Shown piece after piece: positions 53,903 to 62,976 of a DNA stretch of 64,000 nt. Positions within the stretch are counted from its first letter, which is position 1; each line of letters opens with the position of its first letter. The stretch lies in NCBI RefSeq assembly GCF_001677475.2, contig NZ_CP015229.1; one strand, written 5' to 3'. The DNA comes from Escherichia coli. Its GTDB lineage: Bacteria; Pseudomonadota; Gammaproteobacteria; Enterobacterales; Enterobacteriaceae. The notes below the pieces were generated by a model, which saw nothing but the letters and a program-made list of their open reading frames with translations, had not been told where the DNA came from and did no database searches. A program made the position numbers and the translations under genes.

Positions 53903-54094
53903 TTAAAGTCCTGCCGGTATTTCGTTATTATTAGTGTGAGTAGTTTTATCTACCGGATAACAGTTACCGGGAATTTTTTGTTCTGCTGCTGCAGCCATGC
54001 ATTCTTTCATTGAACCGTATAAGCCAGTCACCAGCTCAAGAGATTCGCCGGAAACAAGATAAACTGTCAGAACGAGTGCAAATGTTGTATTCAT
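53903..54094 (-). CDS. small membrane-anchored protein (kil-position), unknown function
   Basis: 63 aa with N-terminal hydrophobic helix; start overlaps upstream gene stop (ATGA). Confidence 0.55.
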   Translation of the reverse strand: MNTTFALVLTVYLVSGESLELVTGLYGSMKECMAAAAEQKIPGNCYPVDKTTHTNNNEIPAGL

Positions 54095-54279
54095 TGTTTA
54101 TATCCTTTTTGCAGCAGGTCCAGACGAGCCAGCATTGAAGGAATGCATACTTCATTTAACAGGTCCTGCTCGAGTTTTCTCTGCTTAATGGCGTCTTCAA
54201 TAAATGTTTTGTCTCCAGTGATAACGCCAATTTCGAAACGAAGTTCAGACGTGCTGGCATTACATGATAACTTTTCCAT
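54091..54279 (-). CDS. small hypothetical protein (kil-position)
   Basis: 62 aa from MEKLSCNASTSEL with GAGGA SD 9 nt upstream; the track's 97-aa version lacks an RBS and overlaps an inverted repeat. Confidence 0.55.
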   Translation of the reverse strand: MEKLSCNASTSELRFEIGVITGDKTFIEDAIKQRKLEQDLLNEVCIPSMLARLDLLQKGYKQ

Positions 54280-54296
54280 TATCGCGTCCTCAACAA

Positions 54297-54444
54297 TGAA
54301 TTTTGTGATGCGGTGCCTGGTGCCTCCAGGTGACGTTAACCAGTTAACAATTAACGCAGGATACAGAGAATCCACCCATAACACTGTTTTTGGTTTTTAC
54401 TGTTCCGCGTGCGCTGAGCCGCATTCACCGCATCACAAAATTCA
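54297..54444. repeat. perfect 19-bp inverted repeat pair (tgaattttgtgatgcggtg / caccgcatcacaaaattca) flanking a 110-bp palindrome-rich spacer
   Basis: Arms at 54297-54315 and 54426-54444 checked base by base; spacer contains cctggtgcctccagg and gttaaccagttaac palindromes. Confidence 0.85.
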
Positions 54445-54856
54445 CTTTTAAAAAAGGGCGGCAGAGCAGTCACGGAGTAAAACTGATACCGCCAAATGTC
54501 ACCAGAATATTGATAACAGAGGGCGTTGTAGCGGGGTTGTCACTTAAGCGTATGGTCAACCTGACAACCCGGTGTCCTCAACGGGGAAAGGCGTCCCTCC
54601 CACCCCCGCCATACTTACCGCCGCGCCATTTCGCGGGTCGCCACAACCGGAAGCGCACGGTCGAATTAAATTTAACGACACCGTGCAGTGAGACGAACTT
54701 CGCCGTGCGCTTTCGTGTTGTGTGCCTGCTTTTAACCACGTCAGGCGAGGTGGTTTCCGTCATTCCCCAACGACAGGAAATCTGTATAATCTGGGTATCC
54801 CCAACGATCCAAGGAAATCATATGACAGAGCAAAGAGCACAAGCAGGTGATGGTGT

Positions 54857-55303
54857 ATGGACCGGGATGATATTCTTGACAGAATTTTTTATGGCTATTT
54901 TCTTGAGCAACTGTTTTCTGTAGCGACTGGTCGTCTCGATAAACTTCTCTCAGTAGTGAGTATTATCCTCGGTTCATCTGTCATTGGCGGATTCATTCCG
55001 GAAATTTCTGGCGTTTTTATTGTTGTGATCGCAACCGTCCAAACGATTTATGGATTCGGACAAAAGTCAGGTAATACCATGAGAAAATCCGCAGAATATT
55101 TGCAGCTTTTTGATGATGCAGAAAAATATTCTGATTCGGAATTGAAAATTCAGTTAAAAACTCTGGAAAAAACAGATGATCATATTTGGTCATCACTTAA
55201 AGATATTGCGATCTTAAAAACACAGATCAAAATAGGCGTCTCCATCGAACAACAAGAGAAGTTGCCCACAAAATCCAAATTGATGCGATTTCTTTGTGGT
55301 TAG
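54857..55303 (+). CDS. 2-TM membrane protein on opposite strand at the Rac sieB position; candidate superinfection-exclusion / abortive-infection effector
   Basis: 148 aa, SD AGGTGA 6 nt upstream; two adjacent hydrophobic helices (LSVVSIILGSSVIGGFIP / ISGVFIVVIATVQTIYGF) then charged C-terminal tail; convergent with flanking minus-strand genes. Confidence 0.65.
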   Translation: MDRDDILDRIFYGYFLEQLFSVATGRLDKLLSVVSIILGSSVIGGFIPEISGVFIVVIATVQTIYGFGQKSGNTMRKSAEYLQLFDDAEKYSDSELKIQLKTLEKTDDHIWSSLKDIAILKTQIKIGVSIEQQEKLPTKSKLMRFLCG

Positions 55304-55392: not shown

Positions 55393-55608
55393 TCAGTAGT
55401 TTTCAATCACTCGCGAAACGTTTAATGCCGCGCTTTTTGCCAGAGTGGTAATATCCTGCTCCGCTGACACCAGTTCTTTAGAGAGGCGCTCTTTGTAGTC
55501 AGCGGCCTGCTTCAGGTCATTAATGGCGCGTATCTTTCCGCACATCCATTCGTAAATTTCATCCTCGGTATAGTCTGGTGCGATGATGACGGGTTCTCGT
55601 TTCTGCAT
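55393..55608 (-). CDS. hypothetical protein
   Basis: 71-aa ORF MQKREPVIIAPDYTEDEIYEWM…; hairpin gccggag…tccggc between it and the convergent 2-TM gene. Confidence 0.5.
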   Translation of the reverse strand: MQKREPVIIAPDYTEDEIYEWMCGKIRAINDLKQAADYKERLSKELVSAEQDITTLAKSAALNVSRVIENY

Positions 55609-56241: not shown

Positions 56242-56718
56242 TTAAGTTCCTGTCTTGGTGATGTTCTGGCTTTTCCGTTTTGATTCTTGATTTTTCAGAT
56301 AGTTAGCTACCTTCATTTCCATTGCGGCAATGTAGGCGCGAACGTCATGATCAACCCAACTAGGCTCCGTAGCATTTCCAGATAAGAGGAAAGCCACAAT
56401 TGCTCTTTTTTCATCAGAGGCGGCTTGATAAAGGCTGTTTATGTCTAAAAGTTCACTTTTTGTATCTGAAGTGGATGGGGTTGGTATGGGGTATTCGTTA
56501 AGCCCCCAATGCTCTGGACCAACCACATCAGAAAAGAAACGCCATAGTTCTGGAAGTTTGTCTTTACTTATCGAACCTTTCTTAATCCAGTCATGGATTG
56601 ATGGTGGTTGGACTTTGAAATGACGTGCGATTTCCGCCTTTGATTTGACGGCTCCTGATGCAATTTTTTTGTTAATGGCCTGCTCTATCGCTCGGCCTAA
56701 GTCTTTACCACTAAGCAT
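56242..56718 (-). CDS. prophage repressor, RacR-like (HTH, no S24 peptidase domain)
   Basis: 158 aa with N-terminal HTH (KAEIARHFKVQPPSIHDWIKKG); divergent from Cro-like gene; same length and position as Rac RacR. Confidence 0.75.
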   Translation of the reverse strand: MLSGKDLGRAIEQAINKKIASGAVKSKAEIARHFKVQPPSIHDWIKKGSISKDKLPELWRFFSDVVGPEHWGLNEYPIPTPSTSDTKSELLDINSLYQAASDEKRAIVAFLLSGNATEPSWVDHDVRAYIAAMEMKVANYLKNQESKRKSQNITKTGT

Positions 56719-62576: not shown

Positions 62577-62820
62577 ATTCATTCCGTATGGGAATTCCCA
62601 TATCGGGCAAAAACGGTTTGCTGTAAAGCGAGAGTTAAGTAGAATTGCTGCGGGTGCTTGAGGCTATCTGCCTCGGGCATGCCGCCGTAAGGCAGACAGA
62701 GAAAAGCCCCAGTTAACATTACGCGTCCTGCAAGACGCTTAACATTAATCTGAGGCCATATCTATGACTTGCACACGTAGGTTAGCCTCTTACGTGCCGA
62801 AAGGCAAGGAGAAGCAGGCT

Positions 62821-62976
62821 ATGAAGCAGCAAAAGGCGATGTTAATCGCCCTGATCGTCATCTGTTTAACCGTTATAGTGACGGCACTGGTAACGAGGAA
62901 AGACCTCTGCGAGGTACGAATCCGAACCGGCCAGACGGAGGTCGCTGTCTTCACAGCTTACGAACCTGAGGAGTAA
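62821..62976 (+). CDS. hok: Hok/Gef-family type I toxin (HokD/RelF-like)
   Basis: 51 aa MKQQKAMLIALIVICLTVIVTALVTRKDLCEVRIRTGQTEVAVFTAYEPEE; AAGGAG SD; in-frame upstream ATG at 62764 gives a 70-aa mok-like extension. Confidence 0.85.
   Translation: MKQQKAMLIALIVICLTVIVTALVTRKDLCEVRIRTGQTEVAVFTAYEPEE

Follow-up and report, generated by a model that had tools for sequence, protein, structure and literature searches.

What does a stretch of prophage DNA do when it carries a perfect inverted repeat, a palindrome-rich spacer and a GC-rich segment with no convincing open reading frame (ORF)? We addressed this question for a locus in a 64,000-nt window of an Escherichia coli genome (here and below, the window is that whole stretch of analysed DNA). 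The original prediction had left three readings: a structured noncoding RNA, a paired operator for the early-left promoter, or a recombination site. The striking hairpins and the missing ORF are already explained: this is the known DicF locus, and the opposite strand had been read. The palindrome-rich spacer belongs to this well-studied locus and the hairpins coincide with RNase III cuts mapped in K-12, which removes a false lead. What stands of the structured noncoding RNA reading is the untranslated, structured RNA itself, comprising both the repeat and the GC-rich segment, together with a frame that is no gene; the strand, the dicBF operon and DicF had been missed. On the basis of sequence comparison, we consider it very probable that the interval 54292-54856 corresponds to the ydfC–dicF–dicB segment, itself untranslated, of a dicBF operon carried by a Qin-like lambdoid prophage, an operon encoded on the minus strand whose transcription runs right to left from dicBp. 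This degree of confidence applies to the whole explanation, namely the identity of the operon, the conserved RNA helices and the role of RNase III.

Operon context and the DicF gene

Comparison of the ORF list with RefSeq annotation gave the K-12 order of genes (ydfA, ydfB, ydfC, dicB and ydfD, plus a DicA-like repressor), with DicF located between ydfC and dicB in a lambdoid prophage operon under dicA/dicC. All of these features lie on the minus strand. The ORF list and the K-12 order place the DicA-like repressor at 56718→56242 and ydfA, ydfB and ydfC upstream of dicF, ending at 55393. A promoter scan found a strong dicBp-like promoter (TTGACA-17-TATAGT) at 56133-56105, and ydfD and then a large exonuclease gene follow downstream of dicB. 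Gene order and strand logic are the same as in the K-12 Qin dicBF operon (ydfABC-dicF-dicB-ydfD), as are DicF, its terminator and the two long helices found downstream and upstream of it. DNA identity to K-12 is 91% over positions 54227-54680 of the window.

The window differs from K-12 in carrying a divergent DicB variant and an extra gene of 148 codons, which runs on the opposite strand and separates ydfC from the DicF leader. For this neighbouring ORF we found no Pfam match, and its PADLOC matches were weak. The inserted gene might change the amount of transcription reaching dicF.

In a RefSeq genome with 99.5% identity across the query, no gene is annotated between dicB and position 54857, and 4708 of 5426 complete E. 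coli genomes match the query. GC content is 0.52-0.565 across 54400-54800 and 0.34-0.43 in the flanks, so the GC-rich segment is where it had been described.

The gene for the DicF sRNA occupies 53 nt at 54456-54508 (minus strand; Rfam RF00039). A covariance search matched RF00039 to 54456-54507 on the minus strand with 77 bits (E 2.7e-16), covering model positions 1-52 of 52, above the gathering score of 48 bits and over the full model. The Rho-independent terminator of DicF consists of a hairpin contained in the Rfam alignment followed by UUUUUU at 54450-54455; a simple terminator scan missed it because its loop is longer than 8 nt. Phage Tritos has a misc_RNA annotated as DicF at the homologous place. 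A member of the DicF family would be expected to appear in the cell at a length of 53 nt and to repress ftsZ and manX. A permissive Rfam search of 52-58 kb returned DicF and a sub-threshold match to STnc100 (see below) only; matches to snoR12 and Rev39 were discarded as chance (E 0.86 and 0.11).

On the other side of the spacer lies dicB, the gene that the leader serves (54091-54291, minus strand), with a Shine-Dalgarno sequence GAGGA at 54287-54291, an ATG at 54277-54279 and 62 codons plus a stop. It matches the DicB family NF049927.1 with 123.7 bits (cutoff 100) and is also annotated as dicB in the 99.5% identical RefSeq genome. The encoded protein is the divergent variant mentioned above, and DNA homology to K-12 begins about 50 nt inside dicB.

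Two long helices flank DicF

A repeat finder located the arms of the inverted repeat at 54292-54315 and 54426-54449 (24 nt, 92% complementary, 110 nt apart), with a perfect 19-nt core at 54297-54315 and 54426-54444, and so bore out the perfect 19-bp repeat and 110-nt spacer of the original prediction. By our own rough estimate, chance would yield a 19-bp inverted repeat this perfect within about 150 nt only about 3e-5 times per 64 kb, and is thereby excluded. In the RNA sense (minus strand), repeat finder, fold and alignment agree on 54426-54449 as the 5' arm (perfect core 54426-54444) and 54292-54315 as the 3' arm (perfect core 54297-54315) of a long closing helix. The 5' arm starts directly after the U-tract of the DicF terminator, in the minus-strand sequence CCC UUUUUU AAAAGUGAAUUUUGUGAUGCGGUG, and the 3' arm stops one base short of the dicB Shine-Dalgarno GAGGA. 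Folding of the 191-nt minus-strand RNA gave -69.5 kcal/mol (z -5.2), a value that 0 of 200 shuffles equalled, and predicted a 21-bp helix closing a four-branch interior.

We collected relatives by a pattern scan of viral contigs and by BLAST matches independent of the pattern; the retrieval pattern, used for part of the relatives, fixes the innermost 4 bp and hairpin P5 of the interior. Among 25 distinct long-helix relatives, the 21-bp helix is 99.4% paired, with only 3 cells unpaired. Three pairs have changed on both sides, for example GUGAA/UUCAC to GCGAA/UUCGC, and AUGCGGUG/CACCGCAU to AUGUGGUG/CACCACAU. Where a cell departs from the commonest pair on one side only (17 cells), it always remains a standard pair (12 G·U and 5 G-C), and G·U is the commonest state at one position. 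In a slid control, with the partner shifted by 1-3 columns, pairing dropped to 35-44%. K-12 itself has two G·U pairs where the window has G-C, so that the core that is perfect here is not so in K-12; the window also differs in a U/A tract that is 2 nt longer, an 8-nt insertion in the leader and a different tip of the upstream hairpin. A covariance model that we built from the relatives scored the window at 153.6 bits on the minus strand versus 21.1 bits on the plus strand. Since 12 of the 21 pairs never vary, the support for the closing helix comes mostly from conservation and less from co-variation. The arms are nevertheless both kept and co-varying in related prophages; their lack of conservation had been named as grounds for abandoning the element.

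The upstream long hairpin of the dicF leader, found by repeat finder and fold, lies at 54642-54722 on the minus strand, about 140 nt upstream of DicF, whereas the long closing helix is directly downstream of DicF. Its helix of about 22 bp consists of segments of 6, 2, 10 and 4 bp with three single-nucleotide interruptions, below a variable apical region. The hairpin potential noted earlier as ggaagcgcacgg…ccgtgcgcttt is present and forms the core of this interrupted helix (repeat I9, arms 54648-54660 and 54703-54715, 13 nt at 92%). The stem is kept in 11 relatives, where three changes on one side only yield G·U or C-G and a single break occurs; over the apical 40 nt, the same 11 relatives have at least four unrelated versions of the tip. 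Both helices are thus maintained at the RNA level in relatives.

Fold and alignment indicate a structured leader between the upstream helix and DicF (54509-54641, minus strand), which contains the hairpin GGGUUGUCAGG…GUGACAACCC. It is nearly identical to the leaders of K-12 Qin and phage Tritos except for the 8-nt insertion. An AU-rich stretch, AUCAAUA, adjoins DicF on its 5' side; according to the K-12 literature, this is where RNase E generates the 5' end of the 53-nt form.

Proposed processing by RNase III

RNase E and RNase III processing of K-12 DicF was reportedly described by Faubladier et al. in 1990. RNase III cuts leave a 2-nt 3' overhang. More recent accounts of this processing in K-12 are those of Balasubramanian et al. 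2016 and Ragunathan et al. 2023. In K-12, termination sets the 3' end of the 53-nt DicF (PMC5069750; PMC9438474, both citing Faubladier et al. 1990), and RNase E trims RNAs ending at the DicF terminator down to that size. A 72-nt DicF is described as the RNase III product of the full-length mRNA (PMC5069750; PMC9438474), made when RNA that has read through is cut by RNase III 19 nt past the terminator; this mapping is second-hand, taken from papers that cite Faubladier et al. 1990, and the two later papers differ in the RNase III products that they emphasise. A review counts the intergenic regions of dicA-dicF-dicB as substrates of RNase III (PMC2777011). Finally, a 190-nt DicF is reported to be lost without RNase III, with a 5' end placed by primer extension "between positions 813 and 814" (bioRxiv 10.1101/2023.04.14.536235).

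We transferred these positions to the window. By alignment to K-12, 19 nt past the end of the 53-nt DicF maps to the middle of the 5' arm, at about 54435-54437 (UUUUGU^GAUG). Position +813 counted from K-12 dicBp falls in GUGCGCUUC^CGG, which belongs to the 3' arm (RNA sense) of the upstream helix, and an RNA starting there would measure 184-188 nt; the K-12 promoter used for this count has the -35 box TTGACC and the -10 box TAATCT, and the transcription start was inferred from the -10 box. The cut responsible for the 5' terminus of the 190-nt DicF precursor would accordingly lie at about 54648-54653 in the window, as judged by this transfer of coordinates. If an RNase III substrate is expected to comprise about two turns of double-stranded RNA (20 bp or more), both structures are long enough, with 21-24 bp in the downstream helix and about 22 bp in the upstream one. 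The cut positions reported for K-12, taken from secondary sources, land inside both of these conspicuous helices, and both are therefore identified as the RNase III helices that flank DicF.

We propose the following model. The 19-24 bp inverted repeat would serve as an RNase III processing helix that forms only on read-through of the DicF terminator, and RNase III would cut the upstream helix to give the 190-nt DicF precursor. If both arms of the downstream helix were cut, DicF would be separated from the dicB message. The partner cut in the 3' arm, modelled from the rule of 2-nt 3' overhangs, would fall at 54305|54304; the remaining dicB leader of about 25 nt would begin near 54304, and the 3' end of the 72-nt DicF would lie near 54435. 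Cutting both arms would also release a structured fragment of about 130 nt. A plain hairpin is enough for RNase III, and processing alone therefore leaves the conserved 110-nt multi-branch interior unexplained.

The spacer interior resembles STnc100

Fold, consensus structure and covariance models place a multi-branch interior with an STnc100-like core at 54316-54425 on the minus strand. Hairpin P2 (54407-54422) adjoins the junction AAU. P4 (54333-54357) contains gttaaccagttaac at 54336-54349, and P5 (54316-54330) has a 5-bp stem and a 5-nt loop, reading cctggtgcctccagg in the DNA and CACCUGGAGGCACCAGGCACC in the RNA; these are the two palindromes first noticed in the spacer, both of them present. 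The outline of the interior is kept among relatives: GGUG-AAU, P2, a P3 stem around a hypervariable region, P4 and P5. In a consensus structure of 31 sequences, seven pairs have changed on both sides.

The STnc100 family (RF02076) matched the window with 28.7 bits (E 0.0023, model positions 21-154 of 206), below the gathering score of 47 bits. Similar sub-threshold matches, of 32.9-43.8 bits, were found at all six loci searched (five related phages or genomes and the record of Aeromonas phage AP1). In the reciprocal direction, a model built from spacer-type copies only matched canonical STnc100 over its full length with 40-62 bits, including copies without the retrieval pattern; part of this score is guaranteed by the retrieval pattern, and we therefore take it as supporting evidence and not as proof.

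The window copy has in common with STnc100, PasD and EcOnc27 the closing helix, GGUGAAU, the P2 hairpin, a variable region and the hairpin CACCNGGAGGCACCNGGCACC. Canonical members, however, are free-standing late-region genes with their own promoter and Rho-independent terminator and a closing helix of 8-12 bp, whereas the window copy is set between dicF and dicB, has a closing helix of 21-24 bp and no terminator, and stays below the Rfam threshold. A scan for an internal promoter or terminator in the spacer gave only weak matches (9 of 12 consensus positions), no more than in shuffles. Because it falls below the RF02076 threshold and is without a promoter and terminator of its own, we describe the spacer as a relative of STnc100 and not as a member. 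That the dicF–dicB spacer fold appears related to STnc100/PasD adds something new, if modest, to the comparison; neither DicF nor dicB comes up in the preprint on Pas sRNAs. No second copy was found in the 64-kb window, either with the pattern at 3 mismatches or with our own model.

The cassette recurs before different early-left genes

In the survey of other lambdoid phages, the cassette following a DicF-like terminator precedes dicB variants in 19 copies, kil/kilR in six (Rac-like and Stx phages), a Rha-like gene in five and one other gene. A U/A-tract (terminator) lies directly before the long helix in 34 of 34 long-helix copies, where in most copies it belongs to a recognisable DicF-type hairpin, and before none of the 14 short-helix copies. 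What Rac-like and Stx phages have in common with the window is confined to about 54295-54461, and kil replaces dicB downstream; the cassette is therefore a mosaic joint. At three loci (L093, L105 and L008) the module lies upstream of the DicF-like RNA, after the leader sequence that in the window precedes the upstream RNase III hairpin. This arrangement suggests that the module and the upstream RNase III hairpin are interchangeable processing cassettes. The presence of one cassette before two unrelated cell-division inhibitors, DicB and Kil, leaves knowledge of the locus itself unchanged and offers a testable idea of how a single transcript in lambdoid prophages links an sRNA to a toxic protein.

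Alternative readings of the repeat and spacer

We regard it as very improbable that the inverted repeat acts as DNA, either as a paired early-left operator or as a recombination site. It does form a near-perfect palindrome in the window and sits at a mosaic joint, where kil or dicB follows. However, such a site would be expected to show symmetry of the DNA on both strands and to lie beside a promoter or a recombinase gene. The promoter, instead, is about 1.7 kb upstream of the repeat, which occupies a transcribed intercistronic region separating dicF from dicB, and neither the ORF list nor the RefSeq annotation has a recombinase or repressor gene adjacent to the repeat. Furthermore, the one-sided changes to G·U, 12 of 17, would turn into A·C mismatches in the opposite strand or a DNA cruciform, which argues that selection acts on the minus-strand RNA and not on the DNA; the position at which G·U is commonest, the two G·U pairs of K-12 and the strand specificity of the covariance model point the same way. 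The proposed operator is thus in the wrong place and has pairs that exist in the minus-strand RNA only. The proposed recombination site lacks site-specific support and retains a sense only as a mosaic joint between different downstream genes, and ordinary homologous recombination in any conserved sequence explains such mosaicism equally well. We give practically no credence to a protein encoded by the plus-strand frame. An open frame of 177 codons is indeed present at 54390-54923 (ORF list), as originally described under the label of low quality. It has a TTG start, runs antisense to a repeat arm, DicF, the leader and the conserved RNA helices, and contains 2-nt and 8-nt indels relative to K-12. 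No PHROG or NCBIfam family matched it, and it is unannotated in the records of K-12, OkiPb01678 and Tritos; the conserved, expressed protein that would have overturned a noncoding reading did not appear. The ORF is not a gene, in keeping with the first impression that no convincing ORF was there.

Two further readings accept the minus-strand RNA and assign it a different main function. One, which we find possible but doubtful, is that the helix chiefly restrains the toxic dicB in cis, its base and the U-tract masking the ribosome-binding site until RNase III or melting frees it. The 3' arm ends next to the Shine-Dalgarno sequence, the predicted unpaired probability of GAGGA rises from 0.12 in the read-through RNA to 0.80 after the modelled cut, and the module also precedes kil, itself a division inhibitor, a Rha-like gene and other early-left operon genes. 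On the other hand, the 4 bp that extend the helix over the Shine-Dalgarno sequence are only 76% paired among the relatives, with no pair changed on both sides, and the predicted unpaired probability of the dicB AUG moves in the opposite direction, from 0.63 in the read-through RNA to 0.01 in the cut RNA, all of these probabilities being thermodynamic predictions. Given the opposite signs for GAGGA and AUG and the 76% pairing, we propose no direction of effect on DicB, and we rejected masking of the dicB ribosome-binding site by the helix base as a general rule. The other reading, which we judge unlikely, is that the repeat-bounded element is a second sRNA of the operon, a fragment of about 130 nt (54434→54305) freed by RNase III and acting in trans. 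The core features held in common with canonical STnc100 and the ability of the spacer-type model to find canonical copies, some of them outside the search pattern, are in its favour. The cut fragment would also retain a closing helix of 9-10 bp, like the 8-12 bp of free-standing members. STnc100-type RNAs are expressed, and EcOnc27, which partly overlaps a predicted STnc100 downstream of stx2, is reported as Hfq-binding. Against a second sRNA stand the sub-threshold score of the window copy and the lack of a promoter, terminator or 3' U-tail of its own; Hfq-dependent sRNAs normally need a 3' U-tail. No such sRNA is reported for K-12 in the literature that we searched. We also tried and rejected the spacer as a sponge for DicF, as the predicted duplex of -42 kcal/mol was equalled by 11 of 300 shuffles and DicF-spacer pairing is thus no better than in shuffles. 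A broader proposal, to which we likewise assign a low probability, goes beyond a cutting site: the spacer would belong to a modular prophage RNA family, built on the STnc100/PasD/EcOnc27 core and placed repeatedly beside DicF-like sRNAs before dicB, kil and Rha-like or TerB-like early-left genes, and it might either be released by RNase III cuts in the long closing helix, as a third and hitherto unrecognised RNA of dicBF, or serve as a platform that sets the amount of DicB or Kil. We continue to favour the RNase III helices of the dicBF operon as the account of this locus.

Comparison with known leaders and RNase III sites

Outside the dicBF operon, the kil/kilR leader of Rac-like and Stx prophages resembles the arrangement in the window: it has a DicF-like hairpin and terminator, a long closing helix, the core and the ribosome-binding site of a division inhibitor. 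It differs in that the downstream Kil is unrelated to DicB, the helix has a one-base bulge and more G·U pairs, and the DicF-like part scores 41 bits, below the Rfam threshold. Sites in the T7 early region and in the lambda N-leader are intercistronic double-stranded RNase III sites that separate or activate products. These are simple hairpins with internal loops, whereas the helix in the window closes a conserved 110-nt multi-branch domain and abuts the terminator of an sRNA.

A candidate exclusion or defence gene opposite dicBF

Between ydfC and the dicF leader, on the strand opposite to the dicBF operon, lies an AT-rich ORF of 148 codons (54857-55303, + strand; GC content, 0.34). Its product contains two hydrophobic segments and matches phrog_6315, a family of unknown function; a Pfam search with the product returned no match, and a comparison with PADLOC gave a weak match to the RT-associated SLATT model (E = 0.013). 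The sequence upstream of the ORF (54760-54856) contains an extended -10 box, TGTATAAT (approximately 54782-54789), which is flanked on either side by copies of a direct repeat, TCCCCAACGA, at 54764 and 54798. The part of the query holding the ORF was covered only by approximately 91 E. coli records. In the Rac prophage (L131), sieB lies beside the division inhibitor gene kilR in the same place and orientation as this ORF. The 148-codon ORF may be an exclusion or defence gene that is expressed in the lysogen.

Start and divergence of dicB

The annotated dicB start at 54279, to which the Shine-Dalgarno sequence belongs, gives a product of 62 codons. The frame is open upstream as far as a GTG at 54384, or 97 codons (54091-54384, - strand), and in this longer form crosses both the 3' arm of the closing helix and the spacer core. 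An in-phase internal start was reportedly discussed for K-12 dicB in 1988. The window encodes a variant DicB (MEKLSCNASTSELRFEIGV…; 54091-54279) that has diverged from its K-12 counterpart (MKTLLPNVNTSEGCFEIGV…; L001). Because DNA homology to K-12 sets in only approximately 50 nt into the gene, we place a mosaic boundary within dicB.

Related modules and RNA elements

Among the comparison loci from related phages and genomes, tandem STnc100-like copies, several within a few kilobases, occur in the late region of L078 (5007-7885; at least five copies), L017, L091, L108, L116, and L119. In three others, L093 (6187-6392), L105, and L008, the module lies directly 5' of a DicF-like sRNA, the reverse of the window order, and is preceded by the leader sequence that in the window comes before the upstream RNase III hairpin.

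The 254-kb record of the T4-like Aeromonas phage AP1 (L007, MT713136.1) carries DicF and the spacer at its end (L007 2980-3244), 96% identical to E. coli; downstream of them is a fragment that resembles a major capsid protein of the lambda type. Rather than a genuine gene of the phage, this segment appears to reflect chimeric assembly or contamination. The stated host of Actinobacillus phage vB_Apl-pPE4 (L006, PP818812.1) appears doubtful, since its recE–kil–dicA–ydaT DNA is approximately 88% identical to E. coli Rac-like prophages.

Elsewhere in the window, Rfam matches the rne 5' UTR element (4297-4633, -), SraB (6494-6662, +), and the sok antitoxin RNA (62652-62826, +). The window therefore covers both core chromosome and prophage, and the sok match places a hok/sok-type locus close to its right end.
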